Assembly (NCBI GenBank): GCA_023957375.1
Contig: JAMLHB010000001.1
Location: forward strand, 1,154,245 to 1,218,244
DNA: 64,000 nt
Reading direction: 5' to 3'
Source of the DNA: Flavobacteriales bacterium
GTDB taxonomy: Bacteria > Bacteroidota > Bacteroidia > Flavobacteriales_F > PHOS-HE28
Shown: piece by piece, positions 8,341-55,215 of the stretch
How positions within the stretch are numbered: position 1 is the stretch's first letter
How the letters are laid out: each line of letters begins with the position of its first letter
Program-made: the position numbers and the translations under genes
The notes under the pieces: generated by a model
Database searches by the model: none
Seen by the model: the letters and a program-made list of their open reading frames with translations, nothing else
Told to the model about the DNA's origin: nothing

Positions 8341-8360
8341 GCACCACAGTCATCACTGCC

Positions 8361-9629: not shown

Positions 9630-9637
9630 TACATTTG
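9630..9637 (+). promoter_or_regulatory. putative Bacteroidota sigma-A -7 box (TACATTTG = TAnnTTTG) upstream of the H1-like gene
   Basis: Matches the Bacteroidetes -7 consensus ~26 nt upstream of the ATG at 9663. It lies at the end of a 600-bp low-GC non-coding stretch. Confidence 0.3.
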
Positions 9638-9662
9638 GATCAAATCCTAAACACTCCAAATC

Positions 9663-9899: not shown

Positions 9900-9920
9900 G
9901 CACATCAGCGCTACAGAAGC

Positions 9921-9955
9921 AAAGACCCCCGAGCGATCGGGGGTCTTCTGCTTTA
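9921..9955 (+). terminator. rho-independent terminator
   Basis: AGACCCCCG-AGCGATC-GGGGGTCT hairpin plus TCTGCTTT. Confidence 0.65.
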
Positions 9956-9974
9956 TGGCCGTTGCATGCGTGCT

Positions 9975-10619: not shown

Positions 10620-10760
10620 GTGCCGTGTTCGGTTTGCGGCGAAGTTATCCTGCGCCATGATCCCGAGGAGCCAGGTACGGGCAACCGGCGGGCCCAACTC
10701 CCGATCGCATTCAGGGATGGTAGATTGAGTAGCGCCGGGTTGAACTACCTTGCCCCAACC

Positions 10761-11348: not shown

Positions 11349-11466
11349 CACAAATGCCCGGCACTGCCGAAGCGTCGGTCCGGTGTGCTGGTGCATTTGC
11401 CTGAGTTGGTCCGATGCCTGCATGTGATCGGGGCGGCAGGCACGACCGGATCACGTTGCCGCCGCG

Positions 11467-12309
11467 CTACGTCCGCACCTTCTCCACCAGCAGGTCCTGC
11501 AGGCGTAAGGCCATGCGGTGGCCATAACGCTTGGTGCGGTACGCGGCCACCCACTGCACGCCCAATGCGGCATTGGTGAAGAACAGCTCATCGGCCACCA
11601 GCAGATTCTGTGGGTTCAGTGAACTCTCATACACCTTGATGCGGTTCTCCAAGGCCAAATTGATCACCTGCATGCGCATGATCCCGCCGACGCACCCGTC
11701 GCTCAACGGAGGAGTGTACAACACCCCGTTGCTGACGATGAACATGTTGCCCGAGCTTCCTTCGATGATGTTTCCCCGGTCGTTCTGCACCAGACAGTCA
11801 TCCAGGTGGTGATCGATGCACCAAAGGCTGGCCATTACATACAGCTGTGCGCCCAAGGTCTTGTGCACCGAAAGCACGTTCACTGCTTTGCGCATTCCAG
11901 GGTACAGGTCCACCACGCCCCCTCGTTCATTCAGGATGAAGGTTTCATGGGGCACAGGGAACAGTTCCAAGGCAAAGGCACCTGCATTGCCGGTCGGCCG
12001 GTAATACCCTTCCGCATCCCTGAACACGGTGAGCCGGCACCGTGCATGGGGCATCTTGCTGCGTTCAGCCAGTTCGCCGATCGCCCGCTGGAGCCCTTCG
12101 CGGTCCAACAGGGGCGGCATCTCTATGCGCAACACGCGCAAGCCCTCGGTCAACCGGGCCCAGTGGGCATCCAGGAAGCATGCGCGGCCGTCCACCACCC
12201 TGATCGTTTCGAAGAGTCCGTCACCATAATGGAAGGCGCGGTTGTTCAATCCTATTGCCGGCTGGCCCGCCGGAAGGATCTTGCCGTTCAGGTTCACATA
12301 GGCTTCCAT
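11467..12309 (-). CDS. class IV aminotransferase (aminodeoxychorismate lyase / D-amino-acid aminotransferase-like)
   Basis: Fold-type IV PLP enzyme pattern (…NRAFHYGDGLFETIRV…, …EGSSGNMFIV…). Confidence 0.75.
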   Translation of the reverse strand: MEAYVNLNGKILPAGQPAIGLNNRAFHYGDGLFETIRVVDGRACFLDAHWARLTEGLRVLRIEMPPLLDREGLQRAIGELAERSKMPHARCRLTVFRDAEGYYRPTGNAGAFALELFPVPHETFILNERGGVVDLYPGMRKAVNVLSVHKTLGAQLYVMASLWCIDHHLDDCLVQNDRGNIIEGSSGNMFIVSNGVLYTPPLSDGCVGGIMRMQVINLALENRIKVYESSLNPQNLLVADELFFTNAALGVQWVAAYRTKRYGHRMALRLQDLLVEKVRT

Positions 12310-12806
12310 GAGGTCATACCTTCTTTAATGAGCACCGGCAACAAGGTGGTGTTTGGCTCCACCAACACCCCCCGTATCCCGGCTGCTGCGGCGGCGTCCA
12401 TGTCGCGTTGGCGGTCGCCCACCATCAGTGACCGGCCTGGATCGATGCCGAAACGGGCGATGGCCCGCTCAAAAAGCAGGCTTCCCGGCTTGCGGCACAA
12501 GCAGCGTCCTTGCGTGGGATGATGCGGGCAATAGTAGATCGCATCCAGGTCGGCACCCGCTTGGGCAAGACGTTCGGCGAGGGATGTGTGCAACCGCTCA
12601 ACGTCCGCATGCGTGTATAGGCCCAGGCCGATCCCGCTTTGGTTGGTGACCACCACCACCAGCAGGCCCGCCGCATGTGCTGCGTTCACGGCATCGGCAA
12701 CTCCGGGCAGCAGCTCGAAGTCCTCCATGCGCCAAGTGTGTGCACCCCGTTCGCGGTTGATCACCCCGTCCCGATCCAGGAAAAGCCCGCCCCGCCCCAT
12801 GATCAA
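12294..12806 (-). CDS. gmhB: HAD-IIIA hydrolase, D,D-heptose 1,7-bisphosphate phosphatase-like
   Basis: LFLDRDGVIN…VVVTNQSGI…YCPHHP…CLCRKP…MVGDRQRDMDAA — HAD motifs I–IV of GmhB. Confidence 0.7.
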   Translation of the reverse strand: MIMGRGGLFLDRDGVINRERGAHTWRMEDFELLPGVADAVNAAHAAGLLVVVVTNQSGIGLGLYTHADVERLHTSLAERLAQAGADLDAIYYCPHHPTQGRCLCRKPGSLLFERAIARFGIDPGRSLMVGDRQRDMDAAAAAGIRGVLVEPNTTLLPVLIKEGMTSWKPM

Positions 12807-13414
12807 AGGCCCACCAGGTTGAAAAACCGCGGCACCGACCCCGGGGCCAATACCGCCGTAAAGGCAATACCGTACAGTGCCCCGAAATAATGCGCATCAT
12901 GGGCGATACCGTCCCCTCCCCTCTTGCTCATGTACCACTCATAGGCCAAGTACAGCCCGCCGAAGATCCAAGCCGCCAGCGGAATGGGCAGGAAAATGAG
13001 CATCAGCTTGGTATCCGGATGCAGCAGGATGAAGGAGAACACCACGGCCGAGGTGGCACCGGAGGCGCCCACCGCACGATAGGCCGGATCGTGCCGGTGC
13101 TTGTAATACCCGGGGAGCGAGCTCAACACGATACCGCCCAGGTACAACACCAAATAAGGAAGCCAGGGCGAACTGCCGGTGATCTGCGCGTAAGCCTGCT
13201 CCACCGCAGTGCCAAACATCCACAGCACGTACATGTTCACCAGCAGGTGCAGCATGCCCCCATGCACGAACCCGTGGGTAATGAACCGGTACCAGTCGCG
13301 TTGTTCATGGATGATGAACGGTTGGAACAGCAAGCGTGAAAACAACGCCATATTGTTCAGTGCGGCCATTGAAACCACCACCGTAACGGCGATGATCACC
13401 AGGGTGATGGACAT
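12803..13414 (-). CDS. rhomboid family intramembrane serine protease
   Basis: Six-TM pattern with GASGA catalytic-Ser motif and a downstream His (…FGALYGIA…). Start at MSITLVII. Confidence 0.75.
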   Translation of the reverse strand: MSITLVIIAVTVVVSMAALNNMALFSRLLFQPFIIHEQRDWYRFITHGFVHGGMLHLLVNMYVLWMFGTAVEQAYAQITGSSPWLPYLVLYLGGIVLSSLPGYYKHRHDPAYRAVGASGATSAVVFSFILLHPDTKLMLIFLPIPLAAWIFGGLYLAYEWYMSKRGGDGIAHDAHYFGALYGIAFTAVLAPGSVPRFFNLVGL

Positions 13415-13530
13415 GGGCGAAAGATAGCCCCGCGCCCCGGTCGGCAAGCCCCGCCTGCCCCCCAATGTCCGACAAGCCCGTAACGAGCAGGCCCCCCAAG
13501 CGGGTGCTCGGAGGGCCGGAACCTGTAGGA

Positions 13531-13605
13531 GTAGCGCGAGAGTGACTTGAACACTCGACCTCAGGATTATGAATCCTGCGCTCTAACCAGCTGAGCTACC
13601 GCGCC
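13531..13605 (-). tRNA. tRNA with CAU anticodon (elongator Met; Ile2-lysidine type not excluded)
   Basis: Hand-folded cloverleaf: acceptor GGCGCGG/TCGCGCT, D-arm GCTC-AGCTGGTTA-GAGC, anticodon arm CAGGA-TTCATAA-TCCTG, T-arm GAGTG-TTCAAGT-CACTC, discriminator A. It is not the initiator type (no CGG start, no 3 G-C pairs in the anticodon stem). Confidence 0.8.
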
Positions 13606-40402: not shown

Positions 40403-43168
40403 TCAGTCGTCGAACCGCTTTCCCCGCAGGCGCAAGGAATTCGAGATCACGCTCACGCTACTGAAGCTCATGGCCGCAGCGGCGATGATGGGCGAGAGCA
40501 GCCAGCCGAACACCGGGTACAGCAGTCCGGCGGCGATGGGGATGCCCAAGGCGTTGTAGCCGAAGGCGAAGAAGAGGTTCTGCTTGATGTTGCGCATCAC
40601 GGCCTGCGAGAGGCGGCGTGCGCGCAGGATGCCGGTGAGGTCGCCCTTCACCAGGGTGATGCCCGCGCTTTCCATGGCCACATCGGTGCCGTGCCCCATG
40701 GCGATGCCCACGTCGGCGGCGGCCAGTGCGGGCGCATCGTTCACGCCGTCGCCGGCCATGGCCACGATGCGGCCTTCCTGCTGGAGACGTTGCACCACGG
40801 CGCTCTTCCGCTCGGGCAGCACGCCGGCCTCCACTTCCGTGATGCCGAGGCGCTTGGCAACTGCATCGGCGGTTCCCTGTGCATCGCCGGTCAGCATGAC
40901 GATGTGCAGCCCTTGCTTCCGCAGGCCGTCCAACGCTTTTGCGGTGGTGGGCTTGATCGCATCGGCGATGGCCAGCATGCCCGCGACCTTGTCATCGATG
41001 CCGACGAAGATCACCGTGGCGCCTTCACGCCTGCGGTCCGCCGCCAGTTTGGAATGCCGCTCCGTATCGATCGCATGCTCCTTCAGGAAATCCGCGCTGC
41101 CGAGGAGCACGCGCTTGCCTTCCACCGTGCCCATCACGCCTTTGCCTGTGGGCGAATCGAAATCTGTGACGGCCGGCACTTGTACCTCCTTCTCGCGCGC
41201 CACACTGACGATGGCCTTGGCATACGGATGCTCGGAAAGCCGCTCCACCGCTGCGGAGAAGCGCAATACTTCCTCTTCCGTAAACCCTTCTTCCGGAAAG
41301 ACATGCGTGAGGCTCGGCTTGCCTTCGGTGAGCGTGCCGGTCTTGTCCACCACCAGCGTATCCACCTTCTCCATGCGTTCCAGCGCTTCCGCATCGTGGA
41401 TCAGCACGCCCATGCCGGCGCCTTTCCCCACGCCCACCATGATGCTCATCGGCGTGGCCAGGCCCAATGCGCACGGGCATGCGATGATGAGCACGGACAC
41501 CGCGGCAACCAGCGCGTAAGTGAAGCGCGGCTCAGGTCCCACGAACATCCAGACGATGAAGATGAGCACGGCCACGCCGATCACGATCGGCACGAACCAG
41601 CCGGAAACCTTGTCGGCCATGCGCTGGATCGGTGCGCGGGAACGCTGGGCGGAGGCCACGAGATGCACGATGCGCGAGAGCACCGTATCGGCGCCCACTT
41701 TTCCCGCCTTCACCACCAAGGCGCCGGAGCTGTTCATGGTGCCACCGATCACGGCATCGCCCACGGTGCGGGTCACCGGCATGGATTCGCCGGTGATCAT
41801 GCTCTCGTCGATGGAGGAACGTCCTTCCAGCACTTCGCCGTCCACCGGCACTTTTTCCCCGGGCCGCACACGGAGACGATCGCCCACCGTGATGCTGTCC
41901 AGGGCCACTTCCTCGTCCGTGCCATCCGCATTGATGCGCATCGCGGTGGTGGGTGCCAGGTCCAGCAAGGCCTTGATGGCGCCGGACGTGCTTTCGCGTG
42001 CACGCAGCTCCAGCACTTGGCCCAGCAGCACCAGCACGGTGATCACGGCCGCGGCCTCGAAGTAGACGCCCACCACGCCCGGCGCGACATGGAATGCCTC
42101 CGGGAAGAGGCCCGGTGCGAACAGCGCGACCACGCTGTAGAGCCACGCTACGCCCACGCCCATGGCGATCAGCGTGAACATGTTGAGGTTGCGGTTGACC
42201 ACGGAAGCCCAACCGCGTTGCAGCAAGGGCCAACCCGCCCAGAGCACCACGGGCGTGGCCAGGATGAACTGGATCCACGCGGAGAGTTGCGGCGAAACGA
42301 TGTGATGCAACGCCGGGAAGATGTGCGATCCCATCTCCAGCACGAACACCGGGATGGAGAGCGCCACGCCGATCCAGAACCGACGCGTCATGTCGATCAG
42401 CTCCTCGTTGGGACCGGTGTCCGCGCTGTACACTTCCGGCTCCAGCGCCATGCCGCAGATGGGGCAGCTGCCCGGGCCCACCTGCCGGATCTCCGGATGC
42501 ATGGGGCAGGTGTAGATGGCCTCCTTGTTCACTGGCACTGCCGTGGCCGCATGCTGTTCAGGATGCAGGTAGCGCTCGGGATCGGCCTCGAATTTCGTTT
42601 TGCATCCGGCGGAACAGAAGTAATGGGAATGGCCGGCGTGTTCCGTGGAATACTTCGCCGTCTTCGGGTCCACGTCCATGCCGCAGACGAGGTCCTTCAC
42701 CTTGTTTCCTGTGGAAGAAGATGGTCCCGTGAGGTAGTGTTCCGGATCGGCCTCGAACTTCGTTTTGCAACCGGCGGAACAGAAGTAGTAGGTATGGCCC
42801 GCATGCGTAGTGGAATGCTTGGCGGTCTTCGGGTCCACGTCCATGCCGCAGACGGGGTCTCTCACCTTTTGCCCTGCGGAACCGGCGACTGGCAGGTACT
42901 GGGCGGGATCGACCTCGAACTTGGCCTTGCAACCCGCCGAACAGAAGTAATAGGTGTGCCCTGCGTGTTCGCTGGAATGCGTGGCGGTCTTCGGGTCCAC
43001 GTCCATGCCGCAGACCAAGTCCTTCACCTTGCCCTTGCCGATGGCGGGCATGGGGGGCAGCGCCGGTTCCATCCCTGTTCCGCAGCAACTGCCGCCGGAC
43101 TTCGCTTCGTGGGTGTGGCTTTCGCCGTGTTTCTTCTCCATGTCATCCTGGATCGCAGCACAAAGCAC
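40403..43168 (-). CDS. copA: copper-translocating P1B-type ATPase with three N-terminal YHS/TRASH modules and one HMBD
   Basis: Three [11 protein letters not shown]…HAGH(T/S)YYFCSAGCK modules plus YTCPMHPEI…CPICGM. Then CPC ([12 protein letters not shown]), [13 protein letters not shown], and the Cu-type TM motifs GYNALGIP and MSFSSVS. Confidence 0.9.
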
Positions 43169-43565
43169 GGTACTGCGGGGGTATTTGGGGTTACAGGATT
43201 ATGGGGAAGGGTTATATCGTGGGGGTTGGGGCGGGTTCTTGGGGTGCTGGGTTATGGATGCGGCTGCGTCAGTTTCGCAAGGCGGAGCTTTTTCAGGATG
43301 CTGCGTTCAAGCGTTCGGTGCTGATGCAACCCTGCATATATGGAACTGAAACACAAATTGCCGGTCATGTCCCGCCGAGTTCACGCCATCGAAATGGCAT
43401 GGGCCACAGGGATCCGGTACCAGTCTTGCCCCAGCGCAAGGGCCAGGTCCTTCGGCGATGGCAGGTAGGCCACCAGCACGTTGTTCTTTTCCGTATCGAG
43501 GATGATCTCGTGCATGGTGGGGGCTATGTGTTTCACAAAAAGGGGATAAGTATCATATCGGGCTA

Positions 43566-43739: not shown

Positions 43740-44228
43740 CTACTTCCCGTATTTCTCTTTCAACTCGAGCTTCTTGATGCGCGAAGCGATCGCGCCTGGA
43801 TCGCGTCCGAAGATCACCGCGAGTTCCTTGTTCTTCTTGCCTTCGCAATACAGCTGCTCCAAGCGTGTATCATCCTCAGCCGTCCATCGCGCGTAGGCAT
43901 GCGGATGCTTCTCGCGGATCACTTCGACACTGTACGCCTTGTCGTCCCCCATGGTGAACGATTTCTTCTTGAACGCGTGCGCCATCAAGCGCCGTACAGC
44001 ATCCGCCATCGCCTCCAGCAGGTCCTCCGCGTGGTCCTTATCCACCATGATGTGGCTGTGCTCGAAGCGCTTGCCGGACTGCGTGCTCTCCGAAAGTTTC
44101 AAGTACGGCTCACCGCTCTTTGTTTCCTGCACATCCACGAAGTAGGTCTTGAGACCGGCGCGGAGGCGGGTGCTGTAGATCTCTTTGTCAGGCATCTTGT
44201 ACTGTATTGGTTCAATTCGCGAATTCAT
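43740..44228 (-). CDS. DUF3276 (PUR-alpha-like) family protein with extra C-terminal HTH-like region
   Basis: …KEIYSTRLRAGLKTYFVDVQETKSGEPYLKLSES… is the Bacteroidota-specific DUF3276 pattern. The C-terminal 50 aa (TAEDDTRLEQLY…IASRIKKLEL) resemble a sigma-region-4-like HTH. Overlaps the hsdR stop by 17 nt. Confidence 0.6.
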   Translation of the reverse strand: MNSRIEPIQYKMPDKEIYSTRLRAGLKTYFVDVQETKSGEPYLKLSESTQSGKRFEHSHIMVDKDHAEDLLEAMADAVRRLMAHAFKKKSFTMGDDKAYSVEVIREKHPHAYARWTAEDDTRLEQLYCEGKKNKELAVIFGRDPGAIASRIKKLELKEKYGK

Positions 44229-47200
44229 TCGCCAGCATCTCCGCCTGCCTTAACACCAGCTCCGTGGCCAGCTTCTGCATATCGGGAGGATAGCCGAAGT
44301 GCCGCAGTGTCCGCTTCACGATCACCTTCAGCTTCGCCTTCACGCTCTCCTTGATCGTCCAGTCGATACTGGCGTTCTGGCGCACGCGCTCGGTGAGGAC
44401 CACGGCCAGTTCGCGGAGCTTCTCCTGTTGCATCAGCTCCTTGGCGCTGTCATTGTTCGCCACGGCGGTGTAGAAGGCGTACTCGTATTCGCTGAGACCC
44501 ATATCGGCGGCCTGCTTGTCGCCGGCGGTGATCTCCTTGCTCACCTTGATCAGCTCCTCGATCACTTCGGCGGCGGTAAGGATCTTGTTGTGGTAGCGCT
44601 TGATGCTGTCCTCCAGCATGTCCATCAGTGATCGGCTCTGCACAATGTTGGTGCGGGCGCGGGCCTTGATCTCGTCGTTCAGCAACTTCTTGAGCACTTC
44701 AATGGCCACGTTCTTGTGCGCCATGCCCTTCAGCTCAAACAGGAATTCCTCGCTGAGCACGGAGATGTCCGGCTTCTTGATGCCCGCCGCATCGTACACG
44801 TCGATCACCTTGTCACTCACCAACGCCTGGTCGATCACCTGCCGGATGGTGGTCTCCAACTCCTCATCGGTACGACCGCCTCCGGTACCGTCGAACTTCA
44901 CGAGACGGGCCTTCACGGCTTGGAAGAAGCCGACCTCGTCCTTCACGTCCATCGCCTGGTCGTGCGGGATGGCGATGGCGAAGGCCTTGCTGAGCGCCGT
45001 GACCTCGTTTATGTACCGCCGCTTGCCGTCCTCCAGGCCGAGGATGTGTTCTTCAGCGGCAAGGATCAGCGACAACTTCTTCGCCGTATCCGCTTGGAAG
45101 TAGTCCTCGTAGGGGAAGCCGCTGTACAGGTTGGCGACCACTTCCAATTTCTCCAGCATCAGCGTAACAGCCTGCTCCTGTGCGATGGTGGGGTCACCCT
45201 TGCCACCGGCATCGGAATAGAAGCTGAGCGCCTTCTTCAGGTCGGCGGCGATGCCGAGGTAATCCACCACAAGGCCGCCGGGCTTGTCATGGAACACGCG
45301 GTTCACGCGGGCGATGGCCTGCATCAGGTTGTGCCCCTTCATCGGCTTGTCGATGTAGAGCGTATGCATACTGGGGGCATCGAAACCGGTGAGCCACATA
45401 TCGCGCACGATCACTAATTGCAGCGGATCGTTGGGGTCCTTCATGCGGTCGGCCAGGGCGCGGCGCTGCTCCTTGGTGCTGTGGTGCCGGGCCATGGCCG
45501 GGCCATCCGATGAAGCGGCCGTCATCACCACTTTGATCTTGCCCTTGCCCAGGTCGTCGTCGTGCCACTCCGGGCGCAGGGCCACGATCTCCCGGTACAG
45601 TTCCGCGGCGATCCTTCGGCTCATGGCCACGATCATGCCCTTGCCCTCAAAGACCTCCTGCCGCTGCTCGAAGTGCGCCACGATGTCGCGCGCCACGTTC
45701 TTGATCCGGTTCTCGCTGCCGATCAGCGCCTCCAATTGGGTCCACTTGGCCTTGGCCTTCTGTGTGTCGGTGAGTTCCTCCTTGCCCAACTCATCGTCCA
45801 GGTCTTTGATCAGCTGCTTGCCTTCCTCGCTCAGGTTCACCTTGGCCAAGCGGCTCTCGTAGTAGATGCGCACGGTGGCGCCGTCCTCCACGGCCTGCGC
45901 GATGTCGTACACATCCACGTAGTTCCCGAAGACCGCAGGGGTGTTCACATCGGTGCTCTCGATGGGCGTGCCGGTGAAACCCAGGTAGGTGGCCTTGGGC
46001 AGCGCATCGCGCAGGTACTTGGCGAAGCCGTAGACGATCTTGCTGCCGACCACTTCGCCCGCTTCGTCCTTCACATCCACGTTGCGGGCCTTGAAACCGT
46101 ATTGTGTGCGGTGCGCTTCGTCGGCGATCACCACGATGTTCTCGCGGGCGCTCAACTGATCATACACGTTTCCCTCCTCGGGCTGGAACTTCTGGATGGT
46201 CGTGAACACCACGCCGCCGCTGGCCACCTTCAGCAACTCCTTCAGGTGGTCGCGGCTTTCGGCCTGCACGGGTTCCTGCCGCAGCAGTTGCACGCTTGCC
46301 GCGAAGGTGTCGAAGAGCTGGTCGTCCAGGTCGTTGCGGTCGGTGATCACAACGATGGTCGGATTGTTCAGCGCCAGCACGATCTTGCCGGTGTAGAACA
46401 CCATGCTCAGGCTTTTGCCGCTGCCTTGGGTGTGCCATACCACACCGCCTTTGCGGTCACCGGTGGGTTGCTGGTTTACACCGGGTAGGCCATAGCTCTC
46501 CGGTGATTCCGCCACCATCGACACATCGCCCGTGGTGCTCGTTGACGGAGCCTTGTAGCCTGCCGCCCTGAGCGTGCTCGCCACCGCCCGGTTCACCGCG
46601 TAGTACTGGTGGTACGCGGCGATCTTCTTTACCGTGGTGATGGTGTTGATGCCCGTCTTCGGGTCTTCCTTCTTGCTGCGCTCGAACACGATGAAGTGGC
46701 GCACCAGATCGAGCAGCGTCTCCTTGTTGAGCATGCCCACGATCAGCGTTTCCAACTGACCGATCAACGGCGAGGCTTCCACCTTGCCATCGCTGGTCTT
46801 CCAGCTCATGTACCGGCTATAACCGCTGCTCACCGTGCCGGCCTTGGCCTCCAGGCCGTCGCTGATCACCGTCACACAGTTGTAGGTGAACAGGCCGGGG
46901 ATGGTCTCCTTGTAGGTCTCCACCTGCTTGTAGGCGCTGCGGATGCTCGCCTTCTCATCGGCGGCGTTCTTCAGCTCCATCAGCACCAGCGGCAGGCCGT
47001 TCACGAACAGCAGTACATCCGGCCGCTTGTTCTTGCCGTTCTCCACCACGGTGTATTGGTTCACCACTAATAAGTCGTTGTTGGCGGGGTCGGTGAAATC
47101 CACCAGCCACACCAGGTCGCCGCGGGTGTTGCCGTCCTGCTGGTAGTCCACCTTCACGCCTTCGGTGAGCATGCGGTGGAAGACCTCGTTGTTCACCAGC

Positions 47201-47439
47201 AGCTCCGGGCTGGCGATGCGCGCCACCTGCTTCACCGCCTCCTCCTGTGCCGCTGCCGGTATGCGCGGGTTGATGCGCCGCACGGCCGCGCGCAGGCGCT
47301 CCATCAGCAGCACCGGCTCGTGGCTGGCACGCTCGGGCTGCTCGCCGTCGTGCGCGATGCAGGGCCCGTACTGGTAGGCGTAGCCCAGCTCGCGCAAGCG
47401 CCCAATGGCGAACTGTTCGATCTGGTCTTCGGTCATCAC
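44212..47439 (-). CDS. hsdR: type I restriction enzyme R subunit (HsdR)
   Basis: 1075 aa with an N-terminal nuclease/res domain, a DEAD-like helicase (…VITDRNDLDDQ…, …VVIADEAHRTQYG…) and a C-terminal HsdR_C region. GTG/ATG start 1 nt after the upstream ORF's stop. Confidence 0.9.
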   Translation of the reverse strand: MMTEDQIEQFAIGRLRELGYAYQYGPCIAHDGEQPERASHEPVLLMERLRAAVRRINPRIPAAAQEEAVKQVARIASPELLVNNEVFHRMLTEGVKVDYQQDGNTRGDLVWLVDFTDPANNDLLVVNQYTVVENGKNKRPDVLLFVNGLPLVLMELKNAADEKASIRSAYKQVETYKETIPGLFTYNCVTVISDGLEAKAGTVSSGYSRYMSWKTSDGKVEASPLIGQLETLIVGMLNKETLLDLVRHFIVFERSKKEDPKTGINTITTVKKIAAYHQYYAVNRAVASTLRAAGYKAPSTSTTGDVSMVAESPESYGLPGVNQQPTGDRKGGVVWHTQGSGKSLSMVFYTGKIVLALNNPTIVVITDRNDLDDQLFDTFAASVQLLRQEPVQAESRDHLKELLKVASGGVVFTTIQKFQPEEGNVYDQLSARENIVVIADEAHRTQYGFKARNVDVKDEAGEVVGSKIVYGFAKYLRDALPKATYLGFTGTPIESTDVNTPAVFGNYVDVYDIAQAVEDGATVRIYYESRLAKVNLSEEGKQLIKDLDDELGKEELTDTQKAKAKWTQLEALIGSENRIKNVARDIVAHFEQRQEVFEGKGMIVAMSRRIAAELYREIVALRPEWHDDDLGKGKIKVVMTAASSDGPAMARHHSTKEQRRALADRMKDPNDPLQLVIVRDMWLTGFDAPSMHTLYIDKPMKGHNLMQAIARVNRVFHDKPGGLVVDYLGIAADLKKALSFYSDAGGKGDPTIAQEQAVTLMLEKLEVVANLYSGFPYEDYFQADTAKKLSLILAAEEHILGLEDGKRRYINEVTALSKAFAIAIPHDQAMDVKDEVGFFQAVKARLVKFDGTGGGRTDEELETTIRQVIDQALVSDKVIDVYDAAGIKKPDISVLSEEFLFELKGMAHKNVAIEVLKKLLNDEIKARARTNIVQSRSLMDMLEDSIKRYHNKILTAAEVIEELIKVSKEITAGDKQAADMGLSEYEYAFYTAVANNDSAKELMQQEKLRELAVVLTERVRQNASIDWTIKESVKAKLKVIVKRTLRHFGYPPDMQKLATELVLRQAEMLANEFAN

Positions 47440-48719
47440 TAGCTGGACTTAGGGAGGTACCCTGTTAAACCCCATGAGTTCCACACCTGTGAAAACGGAC
47501 ACACTGACCCTTCATCGATTCTTGTCCAAGGTTCAGAACTGCACCGATAATCAGTGGATTGCCCCCTGTACTGACACGGGGTAAGTAGTTCGCAGCCGTG
47601 CTGCATGTTCCGCAATACCCGTTGTATCTGGTTGATGCCTAGAACATACATCTGCTCTGGTATGTCACCACGGCCCTTGGGGTCCATAACGGTGACCTCT
47701 CCAACGTTGTTTACCACCAGTGGTGAACCCACGGAACGCATGAAATGCGCGAGAACTCGGTTTTGCGCTATTGTGCCTCCGCTCGCAATCAAGGCAGGGA
47801 ACCCAAGCGCCTTTGAGCGAAACGCATGTGCATCCTTCACTAAGTCACAAAGCCAATTCACAACAGGCTTGAACTCTTCAGCGGGAAAATACTCAGCCAG
47901 TCGGGCCACAGCATTCGCGGCTTGGGCACTAAGGCGACCTTGTATATCGAAACCATCCCAACAAGCAGCGTACACATCCCAGCAGCTACGAAGCTCAATC
48001 CGTTCATCACGGATCCTCTCAAGAGTTCGAAGAAATGCGAGACCTGGGTTTAAATGCATGAGGGAGGCGTCGCAAAGAGCAATCAACCCATCCTCAACGT
48101 TTAATAGACTCGGAAGAACAAGCTCCGATAATCGTCGAGCGCCCAAGTATGGTAGCTCACGGCTAGGCGTTGGTGTGCCATAACAAGCATGCTCTATCTC
48201 AAAGGCCATACTTTCAAGTACTGAGAAACCGCCAAAGCGATACTTCACTTCTACACCATCCCTTCCTGCATAGGTCGTTTCCACGACTTCCACCCGGACG
48301 TCGCCACCGTGCGTTAGCACAGTCTCATGGACGATTGCCACACGTTTGCATTCTCCGCCCATTGCTTTGCCATCACCTGCAAAGACATTTGCGAACGAGT
48401 AGTTTGCATGGACGTTATCTGCTGCCTTTGGAGTTGGTTGCACCGGAGCCTTGAAGTCACCTTGAGTTAGCGAGCGTATTTGGGCCACAGCGCCCTTCAT
48501 ATACTCCGTCATTACGTGAATCAAGTTCAGGCCATAGACGGTTGATACATCCTGCACGAAATGGATGTACTCGTGGAGGTATGCCGCTTCCAAGTCTGCG
48601 TCACCGAGTGCATTTAAGTCCTTCAAGGACTTTGAAGTGTCGAGAAACACTCGCATGAATGTCGGGCGGTAATATCCGCCCGTAAACTCTAGGACATCGG
48701 TGAGTGCGCTTCTGTTCAT
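47439..48719 (-). CDS. hypothetical protein with HExxH motif (putative metallopeptidase-like), low-GC
   Basis: 426-aa ORF, AT-richer than its surroundings. AYLHEYIHFVQD has HExxH with a Glu ~25 aa downstream, and the C-terminus is Cys-rich (CELLTPCQYRG…YRCSS…CPF). It sits between hsdS and hsdR in the same operon. Confidence 0.5.
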   Translation of the reverse strand: MNRSALTDVLEFTGGYYRPTFMRVFLDTSKSLKDLNALGDADLEAAYLHEYIHFVQDVSTVYGLNLIHVMTEYMKGAVAQIRSLTQGDFKAPVQPTPKAADNVHANYSFANVFAGDGKAMGGECKRVAIVHETVLTHGGDVRVEVVETTYAGRDGVEVKYRFGGFSVLESMAFEIEHACYGTPTPSRELPYLGARRLSELVLPSLLNVEDGLIALCDASLMHLNPGLAFLRTLERIRDERIELRSCWDVYAACWDGFDIQGRLSAQAANAVARLAEYFPAEEFKPVVNWLCDLVKDAHAFRSKALGFPALIASGGTIAQNRVLAHFMRSVGSPLVVNNVGEVTVMDPKGRGDIPEQMYVLGINQIQRVLRNMQHGCELLTPCQYRGQSTDYRCSSEPWTRIDEGSVCPFSQVWNSWGLTGYLPKSS

Positions 48720-48799
48720 GATGCGATTAGGTTTGCACGTGCTTGACTGGACACCTCACAGGTTATTGACTTCATGCGCACTACCGAGACAGATGAATG

Positions 48800-51049
48800 C
48801 TAGAAGGGCAGGTCATCGTCATCGGCACTTGAAGATGGTGCACCTGGCAGCAAGGGTGCAGGCGGAACCACCTTTGGTGGTGGCGCATGCAATGCCCTGA
48901 ATGCGTCGCGAAACTTGTTCTGGTCGTTCAGTCGAATGAGAACAGGATTCTCACATGACGATGCCTTGCCGAAGAATACAGCGTGCCTCTCTGGAAGAGT
49001 GGAAAGAGTCCCGGCGTAGTCGTCGCCGATATAGTTTGAAAGGAACTCCATGCCTGTCGAATCGAAAGACCGCATAGCAAAGACGGTATTGCATTGGTTC
49101 AGAATCGTCTTCGTCACGTTTGCTGTTCGCTGCGTGATAAGCAAGCAACCCATGCCATACTTCCTGCCTTGGAGAATCGCCCTTGCAGTTCCATTGGTCG
49201 CGCCTCGATCACCTTCGGCAGCAGCAGCATTCCATTCGGGCACTAGCGAGTGCGCCTCCTCAAAGACTAAGCACAGTCGAGCCTGATCCACCATCTTATC
49301 CTGAACAATGGAAAGGGCAGCCTCAGTGACCATCCGGGTGACTTCAACCGGTGTCACATCCCAAATCCCAGCGGAGCGTTGCCAAGCACCTCCTTCCTGA
49401 TATGAGCGCGGTTCTTGCAGTTGTTTGGTTGCAGTGAACTCCGAAGGATTATAGATCTTGAGCTTCGCCGGATTTGTGGGCTTCATGAACTCAGCCAAGT
49501 CCGCATGTATGGCATTTTCCAAGTTCTGTGCGCTTCCTCCTTCTTGCGGGTTATTCTTGATCTGGTCCGCATCCTTGGTTGCCGCTTCTTGAAGTTTCGC
49601 CATTCGTGCAGTCTCTCCTTCCGCGTCATAGTAGTCTGAAAGCTCCTTCGCGTACTGATTGGTAAGATCCAGGCATACCACCTTAATCCCGGCAGCCATC
49701 ATTCGCTCAACAAGCTCGATAGATAGCATTGACTTTCCGACCCCGAGTATCCCTAGGATAGCAGTATTGTGCGTGACAAGTGCGTTGATGTCCTTAATGC
49801 TCACACAGTAGTCCGTCTTCGGGAAATGACCGATGGCATCTGGATCAGGCGTGGGTTCAGTAGCCTTCAGCAGCTTCACTGGCTCGTTCATATTGGGCAG
49901 CCACTTGACCAATTCGAAGCGCTTCTTCGTAGCGTCCCAGCGGCCGATCTTCTGGGCTTGTGCTCTCGCGAATCCATAGGTGTTCTTGTCCTTCACCGGC
50001 TCGTCCTGCAGCAGTCCCTTGATGACTTGATAGATGACGGACTTCCCCGCGATAGTCGTTTGCACAAGACGCCCTTCTTCGATCTCTGAGTCGGGGATAG
50101 TTTCGATGAACAACTTCTCCAAGGTTGAGTCCTTGGCGGTAATGCCAACAATGGCCTCTGCCTCGGCAACAAGCGCCCCCCGGTGCGACTGGTCGCCATC
50201 AAGGACAATTGCAGCGCTCCCTGGCAGGGACTTCAGTACAGCGATCGTGTCTTTGTCAGGCTCTGTGTCCAGTTTGATGACCCGTGCCAATTGATTGTGG
50301 TCACGACCTACATGGTTCAGCACCAAGCCAAGACGGTGGCCATCCACGGGGTCATTGATGGCAATAACCTGCCGTGGCAGTAGTGCTTGCCCATCAGCTT
50401 GGCGCACGAGGTAGACATTGGGATCCTGGGATGCAGCAAGTTCACCTGTAGCGAAGTTCAATGGCACGCCGGAAAAGAGGGCTCGAATTCTGGCAAAGAG
50501 CATGAGTCCTGTTTCGATAGGGGCAAATGCCGCAACGAGAATCCATGTAAGCAGGATCAAGAGCACTTCAGTAGCAGAGTGCCTGTGGAACGAGATAACG
50601 GCAAACACGACAAGCACGGAGAAGACAGCTCGCGGCGTGCCCAGCGCCTGAGCAATCTCCTTTGTTGCGGTACTCAAACGCTGTGTCCATTGTGCCTTAA
50701 GGTCGAATGTGAGAATAGCTATACCACCTGCAATCACAATGATTGCGCAGTATGCTAGAGCAATGTCAAATGCAGTTCGCTCAACCTGGCTCCAAGCATC
50801 CCAGTCTCGTACTAGGAACAACCCAAAGACTGCTGGCAGAGCATATAGCACAGCATCAGCTGGTTTGACAAAGTGCGGTGTATCCAGGCGCGAGCCGAGG
50901 ATCAATCCGAAGAGCGCGCTATAGAACCAAAAGCCCTTCTCATCAATCGGCGGAAACCACACACCGAAGGCCAACCGACTTCCTGCGCAAAGTATGAATA
51001 GCTCAGTAAGGAGAATGATGAATCGCCAACGTTGATTGAGGCTACGCAT
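48800..51049 (-). CDS. membrane-anchored HerA/FtsK-superfamily (DUF87-like) P-loop ATPase, low-GC
   Basis: Six N-terminal TM helices (~200 aa), a beta-rich HAS-barrel-like segment, then Walker A ILGILGVGKSML, Walker B CLVFEEAHSLVPE, and …GCLLITQRTANVT… Overlaps the hsdS stop by 8 nt. Confidence 0.6.
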   Translation of the reverse strand: MRSLNQRWRFIILLTELFILCAGSRLAFGVWFPPIDEKGFWFYSALFGLILGSRLDTPHFVKPADAVLYALPAVFGLFLVRDWDAWSQVERTAFDIALAYCAIIVIAGGIAILTFDLKAQWTQRLSTATKEIAQALGTPRAVFSVLVVFAVISFHRHSATEVLLILLTWILVAAFAPIETGLMLFARIRALFSGVPLNFATGELAASQDPNVYLVRQADGQALLPRQVIAINDPVDGHRLGLVLNHVGRDHNQLARVIKLDTEPDKDTIAVLKSLPGSAAIVLDGDQSHRGALVAEAEAIVGITAKDSTLEKLFIETIPDSEIEEGRLVQTTIAGKSVIYQVIKGLLQDEPVKDKNTYGFARAQAQKIGRWDATKKRFELVKWLPNMNEPVKLLKATEPTPDPDAIGHFPKTDYCVSIKDINALVTHNTAILGILGVGKSMLSIELVERMMAAGIKVVCLDLTNQYAKELSDYYDAEGETARMAKLQEAATKDADQIKNNPQEGGSAQNLENAIHADLAEFMKPTNPAKLKIYNPSEFTATKQLQEPRSYQEGGAWQRSAGIWDVTPVEVTRMVTEAALSIVQDKMVDQARLCLVFEEAHSLVPEWNAAAAEGDRGATNGTARAILQGRKYGMGCLLITQRTANVTKTILNQCNTVFAMRSFDSTGMEFLSNYIGDDYAGTLSTLPERHAVFFGKASSCENPVLIRLNDQNKFRDAFRALHAPPPKVVPPAPLLPGAPSSSADDDDLPF

Positions 51050-52229
51050 TGGCAGAATTGCTTTCGTTGACCCTCACCTCCCCGCTCATCAGCTTCGGCA
51101 GCAGCGTGTCGCGGAGCTTCGTGAGGCTCTGGGTTTGTATTTGATTCGACTTAACCTTATCGAACAACGACTCAACGACCTGATCAAACTCCTCGACCCG
51201 CTCCTTGGGGGGAATGATGAACTCGATAGTCTTAAAGGCCGACTTACTGATCTCTTGGAACGTGGAACCGTTCGCATGGCCCTTCACCGTCTCCATATTG
51301 GCTTTGAGCCAGAGGTGGATAAAGCGGTTCGAGTAGCCTTCATTCCCATTGATCGCGATGTAGCCTTGATTGACGGCCATGGGCACCGCAGCGAATGCCA
51401 TGTACCCGACAGGTGCCCGCGAAGACAGAAGCAACGTGCCTACAGGCTGGAGCCCTGAGCCGATCTGCTTCAACCCATCCTCAGTGATCTTTCTTGCCGT
51501 GTCAAAGAGGTAGAGGTGTTGATCCCCGGACAAGTCCTTCGGTGTAGTCCAGCAGAACTCACCATCCCAATAGGCCGCGTTCGCGGTGCTTGGGGTCGTA
51601 CCTCCCTTCACTTCCATGATGTCACCTAACGTTCCATCCTCCCACCCCTCCTCCGCCTCCTCCACGAACCACTGCCTGAACAGCGCCTCCGCCATCCCCT
51701 CCAAGGTCTTGTTCTGCCGGTGCAGCAGGTCGATCTTGGCATCCAGGCTGCTGAGCACCGAGGCGATGGCGCGTTGCTCGACTACTTCAGGTACAATCAC
51801 GTCCAGTTGGTCAAAGGCCTCCTTTGCAACACGCTGGCGCCCTGAAGTTCCTTGCAGATTGTTTGATGCGTATTCTTTGATCTCGCTCCACTTCGAGAAG
51901 TAGAGGATGAAGTCTTCATGTGATACTCCTGGTTTGGCGCGGAACACGAGGAACTCTGTTGACCCATACCCAAGTTCACCATTGAGTCCGGCCGCCTGAT
52001 TGATATTGCCCTTCTCTGTGCAAGGACTAATCCTCGCGAATAGAGTGTCACCCTCAGCAAAGCGACTTCCTCCTTGCAATGGTCTTTTCCTTTTGGGGTA
52101 GGCAAAACGTCGTGAAGGATCCATGTCCTGCATCTCGATGTAGAAATGCTCCTTTGACCGAGACAGGGTGATCGGTGGATTGATGTCCACGAATTCGCTA
52201 AACTTCATTTCCTTCCACTCACCCATCAA
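51042..52229 (-). CDS. hsdS: type I restriction-modification specificity subunit (HsdS)
   Basis: Two target-recognition domains separated by the conserved central coiled-coil (…[37 protein letters not shown]…) and a C-terminal conserved helix. Confidence 0.85.
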
Positions 52230-54231
52230 CCTTCACGCTTTTCAGGTTCTTCAGGATGGCGCTGTTCAGTTCGGCCTCTTCCTTCAGCTGCGCGGCGAAC
52301 TCGGCTTGCAGCGCCGCGAAGCGCTCGGCGAACACGAAGTCGTCCTCTTCCTCGGCCAGGCCCACGTAGCGGCCGGGGGTAAGCACGTAGTCCAATTCCT
52401 TCACCCTGCTGAGCGGTGCCGCGCAGCAGAAGCCCGGCACGTCTACATAACCACCCCGCCCTTCGGGCACCCCTCCAGGGGAGGGGAATTTGTTGCGCCA
52501 GTTGTGGTAGGTGTCTGCAATGGTGTTGATGTCGGCCTCGCTGAACTCGCGCGTACGGCGGTTCACCAGGTGGCCCAGGTGGCGGGCATCAATGAATAAT
52601 ATCTCCCCCTCCCGGCCTCCCCCACGGGGGGAGGTGGAATGCGACCCAGCTATCTGAGCTGTACTGCGGAGGGAGGAGGAATGCGCGGCTTCGGCGATCT
52701 TGTCGAGAACACCGTTCGGGTCTTCGGCCCATTGGCTGTTGGGGAAGCGTAGCACGGTAAGCCCCATAGTGGTGAGGTACGCATCACGCTTCTTGTCGTG
52801 CTTCATTCGTGCCTCTTCGCTGTGTGGTGCACCGTCAAGCTCAACGACCAGCTTGGCTTCGTGGCAGTAGAAATCCACGATGTAGTTCCCGAACTGATGT
52901 TGCCGACGGAACTTCAAGTCCATGAACTGCTTGTTGCGCAGTGTTTCCCACATCGCCTCTTCGGCCGGTGTTTGCTTTCGACGCAATTCGCGTGCGCGTT
53001 CCACCAAACCAGCGAAGTGGAACCCACCGCGATAGTCGCGCGCGCTCCCTCTCCCCGAGGGAGAGGGCTGGGGTGAGGGCTTTTTCCTCGAAAAGAACCA
53101 GAGGCTGGCGGGGATCTGGGTGTTGAGGAAGAGCTTGGCGGGCAGGTTCACGATACAATCGATGAGGCCGGCTTCCACCATGGCCTTGCGGATGTCGCCT
53201 TCGCCGCTGCTCTTGCTGGTGAGGGCGCCCTTGCTGAGCACCACACCCGCCTGCCCATTGGGGCTGAGGTGGTAGATGAAGTGCTGCATCCACGCGAAGT
53301 TGGCGTTGCCCTCGGGCGGCACACCGTATTGCCAGCGGCCGTCGTTCCGCAGCAGTTCGCCGCTCCAGTCGCTCACGTTGAAGGGCGGGTTGGCAATGAT
53401 GTAGTCGGCCTTCAGGTCGGGGTGGGCATCGTTGAGGAAGGAGCCCTCGCTGTTCCACTTCACCTGCGAGCTGTCGATGCCGCGGATGGCGAGGTTCATC
53501 TTGGCCAGCCGCCAGGTGGTCTGGTTGCTCTCCTGCCCGTAGATGCTGATGTCGTTGACCTTGCCCTGGTGCTCGGTGACGAACTTCTCGCTTTGCACGA
53601 ACATGCCGCCGCTGCCGCAGCAGGGGTCGAACACGCGGCCCTTGTACGGTTCCAGCATGGCCACCAGCAGTTCCACCACGCTGCGCGGGGTGTAGAACTG
53701 GCCGCCCTTCTTGCCCTCGGCCAGTGCGAACTCGCCCAGGAAGTACTCGAACACGTGGCCCAGCACGTCGGCGCTGCGGCTCTTGGCATCGCCCAGGGCG
53801 ATGTTGCCGATCAGGTCGATGAGGCCGCCGAGGCTGGTGGGGTCCAGGTTCTGCCGGGCGTACACCTTGGGCAGCACGCCCTTCAGCGATTCGTTCTCCC
53901 GCTCGATGGCATCCATGGCATCATCGACGGTCTTACCGATGCTGGGCTGCTTGGCGTGGCTTTGCAAAAAGCTCCACCGCGCGCCGGGCGGCACGAAGAA
54001 GACGTTCTCGGCCTTGTACTCGTCCTTGTCCTCGGGGTCGGCGCCTTCGGCTTCCTCGGCCTTCAGCCTGTCGTACAGCTCCACGAAGGCATCGCTGATG
54101 TACTTGAGGAAAACGAGGCCGAGCACGATGTGCTTGTACTCGGCAGCATCGATGTTCTTGCGCAGCTTGTCGGCGGTTTTCCAGAGCTGCTTTTCGATGG
54201 GTTCTTCGGGGGATTCCTTCTTCTTGGCCAT
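52219..54231 (-). CDS. hsdM: type I RM N6-adenine DNA methyltransferase (HsdM) carrying an in-frame DUF559/Vsr-like endonuclease domain insertion
   Basis: HsdM_N (…[17 protein letters not shown]…), motif [11 protein letters not shown] and motif [10 protein letters not shown]. An internal ~165-aa block …[43 protein letters not shown]…LTVLRF… matches DUF559. Start at [10 protein letters not shown]. Confidence 0.85.
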
Positions 54232-54408
54232 GCGGCATAAATGGATGGCAAGGTAGAGATCGGGTAGCGGTGGATGCACGGTGTGGCACGGGCATCGATC
54301 AACAATTCGTCCGGACCTGCAGCCATGCCCGGCTCCAAGTACCGGTCAAGGGCATTTGCGCGCTGCCCATGCCCCACATGCGGGCTGGTTACGTGGAGCC
54401 GTTGCCGC

Positions 54409-54707
54409 CTATGCCCCCCGTAGCAGCACGCACCGCGCCTCCACCAGGCCCTGAAAGCCGGAGACACGGCCGCGAGGTCCACTACATCCACCTTGATGGG
54501 CAGGTCGCTGTCCGAGAGGTCCTGCTCCAGCAGGGCCAGGGTGGCCATGCCCAGTGGGCGGCCCGCATCAATGGCAATATCCAGGTCGCTGAATTTTTGC
54601 GCAGTGCCCTTCACCCGGCTTCCGAACGCCCATACGGAAACTCCGGGCACATGCTTGCCCAAGATGGGAAGTAGCATGTCCAAATGCCGTTGCTCCAGGT
54701 CAAGCAT
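54409..54707 (-). pseudogene. MNT-type nucleotidyltransferase (HI0073-like antitoxin), apparently frameshifted near its 3' end
   Basis: …AFGSRVKGTAQKFSDLDIAI…VDVVDLAAVSPAF… is the pfam01909 pattern. After SPAFRA the annotated frame runs on for >100 codons over hsdM. A +2 frame gives a plausible C-terminus LVEARCVLLRGA* with a stop at ~54409. Confidence 0.55.
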
Positions 54708-55215
54708 GGCGGTCGATCAATTCATCCAGCAATTTCCGGGCATGGGGCACGAACGAAAGGGCAACCTGGTAGGTCTCCCCGGCCTTGTCCGTGTCGTAGT
54801 TGTGGCTGGTGAGGTTGCGTGCCCGCTGGAAGGTGAACCAACCTTCGGGGTCATCGATCAAGCCCCTGCGGGCCGCTTCCCTGAACAATTCCCTTCTGCC
54901 CAACAGGTCCGCATCCCCGGCTTCCATCAATACTAACTGGCGGCGCATCATCTTCCAGTACAGCTCATAAGTGTACTCAAACCGCTGGATGCATCCATCA
55001 CGCTCCAAGTCGTTCGCCGGCACTGTTGGCGAACGCCTCTTCCAAGCGCAAAAACCGCATTCAACAAACTGGACAGGTCCAAGCGTTCCGGATCCATGGT
55101 TGCTAAGATAAATGCCTGCACCTACTTCGCTGTGCCAAGGCTCCTTATGCAGCGCCTTGTCAATCCAGCCCCAGGTCCATCTGCTTGCCCGGCTTATAAC
55201 CGATGATCGGATCAT
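54700..55215 (-). CDS. nucleotidyltransferase substrate-binding protein, HI0074/HEPN-like family
   Basis: …IQRFEYTYELYWKMMRRQL…RELFREAARRGLIDDPEGWFTFQRARNLTSHNYD… Start uncertain: the annotated N-terminal ~40 aa look non-homologous, so the true start may be internal or non-ATG. Confidence 0.55.
   Translation of the reverse strand: MIRSSVISRASRWTWGWIDKALHKEPWHSEVGAGIYLSNHGSGTLGPVQFVECGFCAWKRRSPTVPANDLERDGCIQRFEYTYELYWKMMRRQLVLMEAGDADLLGRRELFREAARRGLIDDPEGWFTFQRARNLTSHNYDTDKAGETYQVALSFVPHARKLLDELIDRHA

Follow-up and report, generated by a model that had tools for sequence, protein, structure and literature searches.

The space between hsdS and hsdR in type I restriction-modification (RM) operons is the position occupied by prrC. 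Looking inside type I RM, BREX, DISARM and Hma loci for nested genes is an established way to find defence systems (10.1101/2024.01.29.577857). Using such embedding, Payne et al. obtained 145 candidates and found PrrC to be almost exclusively type I-embedded (10.1101/2024.01.29.577857), and TgvAB of Vibrio cholerae is a validated two-gene example (PMC11411939). In the present study we analysed a stretch of 64,000 nucleotides (nt), hereafter the window, from a Flavobacteriales bacterium (contig JAMLHB010000001.1, positions 1,154,245 to 1,218,244), in which a chromosomal type I RM operon carries two additional genes in the prrC-like slot. One encodes a membrane-anchored HerA-clade ATPase of 749 amino acids (aa), designated TM-HerA, and the other a 426-aa protein with an HExxH motif and a cluster of four cysteines, designated the partner. 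The reading that we favour, by a modest degree, is that the hsdS-hsdR slot holds a stack of two cargo genes, each mobile independently of the other, and no obligate two-gene system.

Five consecutive open reading frames (ORFs) fill positions 44212-54279 of the minus strand in the order hsdM–hsdS–749-aa ATPase–426-aa partner–hsdR, and the very strong Pfam scores leave the identities of HsdM, HsdS and HsdR clear. Both the ORF coordinates and the Pfam matches agree with the gene order given in a first-pass annotation of the sequence. The components are as follows:

52219..54279, minus strand: hsdM, 686 aa; Pfam N6_Mtase (2e-101), HsdM_N and DUF559 (4e-36)
51042..52229, minus strand: hsdS, 395 aa; Pfam Methylase_S (1.4e-34); 8-nt overlap between its stop and the ATPase start
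48800..51049, minus strand: TM-HerA ATPase, 749 aa; membrane-anchored, HerA clade, a foreign cargo gene
48720..48799, minus strand: spacer of 80 nt between the ATPase and the partner
47439..48719, minus strand: partner (HExxH/Cys4 protein), 426 aa; cytoplasmic, of an unannotated family
44212..47439, minus strand: hsdR, 1075 aa; Pfam HSDR_N, SWI2_SNF2 and T1RH-like_C; its start abuts the partner stop

The two tight junctions that the same annotation had described are visible in the sequence. The hsdS stop codon (TAG) and the ATPase start codon (ATG) overlap in ATGCGTAG, while the TAG of the partner shares 1 nt with a GTG, and 2 nt further on an ATG opens HsdR (MTEDQIEQ...). The gap at 48720-48799 had been omitted from that description. 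No promoter or terminator signals above chance were found inside the insert or at the spacer. The two inserted genes had also been called AT-richer (about 50% GC versus about 65%), and here the contrast is real although the values were misquoted: the overall GC content is 0.51 for the partner and 0.53 for the ATPase versus 0.615-0.62 for hsdR, hsdM and parC (0.61 for the whole window). The difference is sharper at third codon positions (GC3), with 0.52 for the partner and 0.57 for the ATPase versus 0.83-0.88 in hsdM, hsdR and parC. The 3.6-kb low-GC segment formed by the two genes is a compositionally foreign insert in the prrC-like slot.

We investigated whether the two genes travel together. 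The ATPase-side loci were the best 80 of 174 confirmed matches in one-genome-per-species contigs from many phyla, and 78 of the 80 allowed the ATPase to be positioned relative to the surrounding genes; the partner side comprised 87 loci. Not one of the 78 ATPase loci, which come from different species, contained a partner homologue, no neighbouring gene of any kind was conserved across them, and many ATPase copies are separated from the flanking genes by several hundred bases on both sides. Reciprocally, an ATPase gene was found upstream of the partner in only two of the 87 partner loci, which belong to one lineage (L087 and L088), and it was absent from the remaining 85. The ATPase-partner pairing is therefore not conserved.

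The same conclusion emerges from the closest relatives of the insert, whose backbones and slot contents were:

L173: no similarity in the RM backbone, about 29 codons of the hsdS 3' end upstream; ATPase only, solitary (82% aa identity; 90% nt identity over 1.5 kb)
L174/175: hsdM C-terminus 97% and hsdR 88% identical (aa); ATPase (75%), a GmrSD_N fragment and a 272-aa Zn-ribbon protein
L176-178: hsdS present; ATPase (60%) and an HTH-Peptidase_M78 gene
L001: hsdM 90% and hsdR 81-83% identical (nt); an Abi_2 gene separating M from S; the slot is filled by an unrelated 696-aa protein and the partner (48%)
L087: hsdS fragment present; ATPase (84%) and partner (44%)

Four arrangements of the slot were thus recognized, i.e. 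(i) TM-HerA with the partner, (ii) TM-HerA with the Zn-ribbon protein, (iii) TM-HerA with the HTH-M78 protein, and (iv) the 696-aa protein with the partner. A further ATPase copy, on an Aminobacter plasmid, is solitary, flanked by an AbiE pair on one side and two reverse-transcriptase genes on the other. Nucleotide homology between the window and the cassettes of L087 and L173 extends no further than the 3' end of the ATPase gene, just upstream of the spacer, and the partner alleles of the window, L001 and L087 share 44-48% pairwise identity versus 75-97% for the flanking genes. Since the contents of the slot vary on orthologous backbones and the divergence of its genes is discordant, the hsdS-hsdR slot holds interchangeable cargo, and the histories of the ATPase and the partner differ.

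The orphan 696-aa protein that takes the place of the ATPase in L001 (7877-9967) contains, as judged by eye, Bergerat/GHKL-like motifs (E..N, DNGIGF, GGRGIGR), and it had no match in Pfam, PADLOC or the PDB. It was considered as a diverged HerA and rejected, as BLASTP showed no similarity to the ATPase.

These observations bear directly on the model put forward in the first-pass annotation, in which the ATPase and the HExxH protein form one phage-defence or abortive-infection module whose activity may be held in check by the RM complex. Spelled out on the PrrC pattern, a HerA sensor/motor and a metalloprotease effector would be kept silent by the type I RM enzyme until a phage blocks restriction. 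The two genes do share a strand and an operon, the partner is translationally coupled to hsdR, the insert sits in the prrC position, and HerA proteins with known anti-phage activity (SIR2-HerA, DUF4297-HerA) depend on a partner effector. Moreover, relatives of the partner are often found beside NTPases (AriAB, GajA, a Hymenobacter AAA ATPase and the 696-aa L001 protein with its GHKL-like motifs). However, the co-occurrence counts given above, the close ATPase relatives that lack the partner (L173, L174/175, L176-178), the discordant divergence with a recombination breakpoint between the two genes, and the 80-nt gap itself all argue against a fixed module. We consider the obligate, RM-guarded pair unlikely, and it keeps what weight it has because the adjacency recurs once, in the diverged L087/L088 lineage, despite only 44% identity of the partner.

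The first-pass annotation had also asked whether homologues recur inside RM operons and defence islands, and this proved to hold for each family separately. TM-HerA was linked to type I RM genes in 10 of the 78 species loci; in eight of these ten it directly followed hsdS or an S-M fusion, and the stop and start codons at RM-linked junctions usually overlap. The gene orders were:

R-S-[ATPase]-M: L003, L009, L018, L027 and L069
R-(S/M fusion)-[ATPase]: L025 and L041
M-S-R-[ATPase]: L050 and L053
ATPase closely preceded by hsdR-like and hsdS genes: L068

TM-HerA genes directly after hsdS and lacking the partner were also present in L174-178, and a 32%-identical TM-HerA occupies the hsdS-hsdR slot of an Arcobacter plasmid (L181; CP146529.1). 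Other neighbours of TM-HerA include type III and type IIG RM genes, Mrr, HNH and PDC-S01 proteins, recombinases and a transposase. In the 3741-13582 region of the Arcobacter plasmid the single slot holds three cargos in a row, namely a SMODS and AGS_C cyclase with a SLATT protein, TM-HerA, and a protein with an RNA-binding domain, and a SprT-family protease and an integrase follow hsdR. Downstream of TM-HerA (60% identical) in L176-L178 lies a gene for an HTH_3 and Peptidase_M78 (ImmA/IrrE) protein, another HExxH metallopeptidase, in the position held by the partner in the window.

The partner homologues showed a different set of neighbours: a fused PARIS AriAB (7.5e-168), GajA, other AriA/PtuA-type ATPases, PDC-S02, a type ISP enzyme, Mrr, NACHT, RecD-like proteins and integrases. 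Some lie beside hsd genes: hsdR directly precedes the homologue of L098, and those of L093, L095 and L139 adjoin hsdS or hsdM. The cluster around a homologue on a Hymenobacter plasmid contains SNF2/DEAD helicases, a methyltransferase and AAA ATPases. Each of the two families is large and horizontally mobile, has a patchy distribution, and is repeatedly located in or beside defence systems.

The tblastn search with the ATPase and the partner against 50,697 phage genomes gave no match for either, and a phage origin of the genes was rejected for this reason. Six partner homologues were present on IMG/VR contigs. The more distant partner homologues (25-27% identity; L118, L126, L127, L134, L144 and L149-L153, from gut and other metagenome contigs) reside in conserved clusters rich in GT4 glycosyltransferases, some of which match the Pfam family 'GT4-conflict'. 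Because of this location, part of the partner family may serve in a different, possibly surface-polysaccharide or conflict-related, context.

The ATPase belongs to the HerA clade of the FtsK-HerA P-loop superfamily. Its parts, all encoded on the minus strand, are:

50477..51049, minus strand: N-terminal polytopic membrane domain (aa 1-191), seen by hydropathy and in the AF2 model, with the conserved loop motif RLDTPxxxKPxDxxxY
49802..50455, minus strand: beta-rich region (aa 199-416), a HAS-barrel-like part preceding the ATPase core
48890..49792, minus strand: HerA ATPase core (aa 420-720), with Walker A GVGKS (435-439, nt 49733-49747), Walker B VFEEAH (594-599), QGRKYG (626-631) and ITQRT (637-641)
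48803..48889, minus strand: Pro-rich disordered linker ending in the acidic tip DDDLPF (aa 744-749, nt 48803-48820), similar to that of SSB (the protein that binds single-stranded DNA); predicted local distance difference test score (pLDDT) below 50 at residues 728-748

The motifs GVGKS, VFEEAH, QGRKYG (the GRK motif) and ITQRT (the TQR motif) are invariant across 53 homologues, as are P32, G38, Y42, L54, P57, P62, D64 and Y68 of the membrane domain. Three of these motifs (GVGKS, FEEAH, ITQRT), together with a HAS-barrel-like segment and a HerA/DUF87-type P-loop, had been named in the first-pass annotation and were confirmed, with the beta-rich region, Pfam DUF87 and the PDB HerA matches in agreement. 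Its six transmembrane helices were borne out as an N-terminal membrane domain, the count being four strong and two weaker segments by hydropathy and seven helices (residues 1-191) in the AF2 model. This model, a monomer built on the 53 homologues (pLDDT 76), also contains the beta-rich region, the core and the disordered tail.

The Pfam DUF87 match reached 29.9 bits (cutoff 23.2). Several PADLOC HerA models match the protein only in part; mad8 covers the core alone (residues 427-697, E 3.7e-11), and NCBIfam HerA_antiphage gave 49 bits, far under its cutoffs of 800-850. The best PDB sequence match was the HerA of Paenibacillus SIR2-HerA (8wiv, 2.9e-15). The fold comparison of the ATPase, with the two values obtained for each structure, was:

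Sulfolobus HerA, 4d2i: 22.4; 322
TdpA, 8wet: 19.3; 339
HerA of SIR2-HerA, 8wiv: 19.1; 314
DndH C-domain, 7es4: 18.0; 228
VirB4, 4ag5: 16.7; 229
TrwB, 1e9r: 15.4; 253
FtsK, 2ius: 14.7; 236

The overall fold, including the N-terminal HAS-barrel, is nearer to HerA than to FtsK, VirB4 or TrwB. Given the sequence matches, the fold comparison and the invariant Walker A/B, GRK and TQR motifs, the protein is an intact, membrane-anchored member of the HerA clade. Its family comprises more than 1200 clusters at 90% identity.

A membrane anchor joined to an ATPase of the FtsK-HerA superfamily is also the architecture of TrwB, FtsK and SpoIIIE, and weak NCBIfam matches to CedD, VirB4 and TraC were obtained around Walker A. 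The gene might then be a remnant of a conjugative or other DNA-transfer apparatus (a type IV secretion system (T4SS) coupling protein, or an FtsK/TraB- or Ced-like pump), or else a housekeeping membrane DNA translocase. However, T4SS, relaxase and other transfer genes are absent from the window and from 104 immediate neighbours, the distribution of the family is patchy, its GC3 is foreign, copies in unrelated contexts share 90% nucleotide identity, and the gene is found again and again at exactly the position after hsdS. The first-pass annotation had listed a housekeeping or T4SS assignment, or conjugation genes, as grounds for dropping its proposal; none of these was found, and we give this explanation hardly any credence.

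The ATPase gene is a mosaic when compared with the solitary L173 copy (P0012): its initial 1.5 kb is 90% identical in nucleotides and its 3' end 83%. For the segment at 49283-49626 of the window, which encodes a helical insertion separating Walker A from Walker B, L173 offers no nucleotide match; this segment resembles another allele group (cf. P0014, P0088, P0096).

Escherichia coli SSB ends in ...DFDDDIPF. The C-terminus of TM-HerA, DDDLPF, resembles this terminal motif of bacterial SSB: among 120 homologues, 60 end in [DE]..[ILMV]PF, and 20 exactly in the SSB motif DDDIPF; the form DDD[ILV]PF terminates roughly half of the homologues. Our literature search found no report of SSB-tip mimicry in a HerA or any other defence protein, nor of a membrane-fused HerA defence protein.

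The partner represents a separate family, in which an ~425-aa chain contains a middle domain made of helices and, at the C-terminus, a Cys4 cluster; hydropathy revealed no membrane segments. Its two motifs are:

48549-48575, minus strand: HExxHxxQD (aa 49-57), with HEYIH at 49-53
47499-47594, minus strand: Cys4 cluster (aa 376-407), formed by C376, C382, C393 and C407

H49, E50, H53, Q56, E169 and the four cysteines are invariant across 32 diverse homologues, and in the confident AF2 model (predicted template modelling score 0.86) both HExxH and E169 lie on predicted helices. Neither the sequence alone nor the 32-sequence profile had a match in Pfam, PADLOC, NCBIfam or the PDB sequences. Foldseek comparison of the model with the PDB gave no counterpart at E<=1e-3, the zincin fold included, and no similarity to any peptidase family was found by sequence, profile or fold comparison. 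The zincin-like motif and Cys-rich C-terminus noted in the first-pass annotation are thus real and conserved, in a protein whose model has no zincin counterpart among the PDB folds. We favour the view that the partner, with its HExxH...E motif and Cys4 cluster, is a candidate metal-dependent hydrolase that would act as effector or sensor.

Only nine relatives of the partner were recovered by a word-indexed search, and a further search of this kind with the partner profile added almost none. The exhaustive profile search revealed 1260 cluster representatives at E<=1e-3 (clusters at 50% identity), of which 430 were at E<=1e-30; nearly all are 410-460 aa long.

SprT/DUF45-type HExxH proteases are often annotated next to hsdR. 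This raises the question of whether the partner is an RM accessory metallopeptidase, SprT/DUF45-like, that controls HsdR (e.g. in restriction alleviation), the ATPase alone being defence cargo. Such a role would suit its place immediately upstream of hsdR with a stop/start overlap (in the window and in L001) and its location beside hsd genes in L098, L093, L095 and L139, as well as the SprT-family protease after hsdR in the Arcobacter plasmid and the HTH-M78 protease in the equivalent position of L176-178. It fits poorly with the fact that about 80 of the 87 partner loci are not beside any hsd gene and that many homologues adjoin PARIS, Gabija, integrase or glycosyltransferase genes. That near-identical RM backbones carry partner alleles diverging by over 50% would also be odd for a dedicated HsdR regulator. 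Homology to SprT was rejected (Pfam E 0.19 in one of 32 members only), as was homology to the M78 protease of L178 (hhalign probability 3%). We therefore consider an accessory role very unlikely.

How the two cargo genes might work can be outlined from their architecture and context. Both are plausible new defence genes, and their embedding in known defence loci points to a defence role for each; we infer that they act independently. TM-HerA would be a self-contained HerA-clade ring ATPase fused to a conserved membrane domain of six or seven helices, i.e. a predicted hexameric DNA motor held at the inner membrane, where it may engage invading or RM-cleaved DNA ends. It could then either pass the DNA to host nucleases and helicases of the SSB interactome drawn by the tip, or use its fused membrane domain as the effector, as a single-polypeptide analogue of HerA plus SIR2 or a nuclease. 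With either option it would complement restriction. The partner, as a cytoplasmic metal-dependent hydrolase from a separate, large and fast-diverging defence-island family, may act alone or with whichever NTPase adjoins it.

The recurrent hsdS-TM-HerA junction could reflect functional coupling. It could equally result from hitch-hiking via recombination in the conserved 3' region of hsdS, which fits the solitary L173 copy with its hsdS remnant upstream. A bolder version of the scheme makes TM-HerA a widespread single-gene anti-phage/anti-plasmid system, whose membrane hexamer captures incoming or RM-cleaved DNA and whose SSB-tip mimic recruits enzymes of the SSB interactome (e.g. RecJ, ExoI, RecQ) to destroy it, with the HExxH/Cys4 family as a second defence family of unprecedented fold. 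Such a scheme would explain the conserved placement directly after hsdS; half of the TM-HerA family has no SSB-like tip, and a tip-based mechanism is therefore not general. We regard this version as quite unlikely.

Several points weigh against the favoured reading of two independent cargo genes. The adjacency of the ATPase (84%) and the partner (44%) in L087/L088 is a recurrence in diverged form, so functional pairing may hold within the lineage of the window, L087 and L088. Every characterised defence HerA protein acts together with a separate effector, and some NTPase is often found beside the partner. A defence role for either gene is suggested by genomic context. The sampled loci, as the best 80 of pattern-limited scans, are not an unbiased census, and the genes of the comparison loci were called by a crude longest-ORF method, by which small neighbouring genes were possibly missed.

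Defence genes nested in RM, BREX or Hma operons are a productive source of new immune systems, and the locus exposes two large unannotated families, each of which passes the embedding test repeatedly across phyla. Neither has a model in PADLOC 2.0, Pfam (apart from the weak DUF87 match to the ATPase) or the PDB. A membrane-fused HerA would extend HerA defence from "HerA plus separate effector" to a single polypeptide, and the SSB-type tip suggests a route by which a defence protein may recruit host genome-maintenance enzymes. The hsdS-hsdR slot emerges as a combinatorial cargo site, which cautions against reading adjacent embedded genes as one system. As embedded cargo is already known and the proposed module is not a conserved unit, the finding is less striking than the first-pass annotation suggested; the interest of the locus lies in the two sizeable unannotated families and the unexplained SSB-tip mimic.

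Some other features of the operon and its surroundings were observed. The flanks are ordinary chromosome (parC/parE, AcrB, cytochrome c peroxidase, DUF3276), and the nearest neighbours of the insert in the window are hsdMSR, an MNT/HEPN pair upstream of hsdM, and parC. This pair comprises:

54700-55215, minus strand: HEPN (NTase_sub_bind), forming a toxin-antitoxin-type pair with MNT, immediately upstream of hsdM
54063-54707, likely ~54380-54707, minus strand: MNT (Polbeta/NTP_transf_2; PADLOC PDC-S09-like)

The mechanically called MNT ORF overlaps that of hsdM, and the true start of hsdM or MNT is therefore probably further downstream. At 40403-43324 of the window, ORFs of 921 aa (minus strand) and 877 aa (plus strand) overlap on opposite strands, and the plus-strand ORF has no Pfam match.

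Within hsdM, aa 427-531 (nt ~52687-53001) constitute an in-frame DUF559/Vsr-like endonuclease insertion, which the hsdM orthologue in L001 lacks. A segment homologous to it (41% aa identity) lies within hsdR of L174 (5677-5967), and hsdR of L001 carries an insertion of ~614 nt (12167-12781) at the corresponding region. The appearance of the DUF559/Vsr-like insertion is that of a mobile element that jumps, in frame, from one hsd gene to another. The hsdM coding sequence also contains a palindromic repeat of 41-43 nt (52450-52492), with the palindrome CCCCTCCAGGGGAGGGG at 52470-52486. Five copies of this repeat occur in L001 (5533-5573, 12166-12206, 12222-12264, 12679-12719 and 12735-12777), where copies bound the hsdR insertion; it resembles a repetitive extragenic palindromic (REP) element or a miniature inverted-repeat transposable element (MITE).

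Finally, we compared the two proteins with known systems. In agreement with the first-pass annotation, which could match the pair to no known defence system, PADLOC, NCBIfam, Pfam and the PDB gave only partial HerA/mad8 matches for the ATPase and nothing for the partner. The window shares with PrrC/EcoprrI the location of its cargo between hsdS and hsdR of a type I operon, although neither protein shows the ABC-type ATPase joined to an anticodon-nuclease domain that PrrC has, with no PrrC/RloC or ABC-type match in Pfam, NCBIfam or PADLOC. Unlike TgvAB, the window proteins contain no GmrSD domains. They also differ from the PDC and HEC candidates (Payne et al. 2024) in that neither matches any PDC or HEC model; the PADLOC copy used contains these models, and the same library gave PDC/HEC matches for other proteins.

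The invariant HExxH with a downstream Glu and the location next to hsdR liken the partner to SprT/DUF45-like proteins, ImmA/IrrE M78 proteases and Lit, and the genes of the first two hold comparable places in L181 (SprT) and L176-178 (M78). The partner differs from all of them in its helical middle domain and Cys4 cluster, and lacks sequence, profile or zincin-fold similarity to them. TM-HerA resembles bacterial SSB in its disordered Pro-rich linker followed by the DDD[IL]PF end, but the tip is borne by a membrane ATPase without an OB fold and is missing from about half of the family. An N-terminal membrane domain followed by an FtsK-HerA-superfamily ring ATPase is shared with FtsK/SpoIIIE and TrwB, from which TM-HerA is distinguished by its beta-rich region of the HAS-barrel type, typical of HerA, and by a context without division or conjugation genes.

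In DndH (DndFGH), TdpA (TdpAB) and Mad8 (MADS), as in TM-HerA, a HerA-like ATPase is genetically tied to DNA-modification-based defence. However, the other components of these systems are absent from the window, and TM-HerA is membrane-anchored and linked to type I (also type III and IIG) RM. In the case of MADS, mad8 matches the TM-HerA core and not its full length, and the neighbours are hsdMSR, MNT/HEPN and parC. The closest likeness in sequence is to SIR2-HerA (Nezha) and DUF4297-HerA, which share with TM-HerA the ATPase clade (8wiv, 2.9e-15) and residence in defence islands. They differ in that the window operon contains neither SIR2 nor DUF4297, neither of which is among the most frequent neighbour families listed, and in that TM-HerA scores 49 bits against cutoffs of 800-850 and matches the PADLOC HerA models partially. 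Furthermore, TM-HerA bears a fused polytopic membrane domain and an SSB-like tip, and usually stands without a conserved neighbour. RM-embedded cargo and HerA-based defence are both already known, and the variation found here is the fused membrane domain on HerA.

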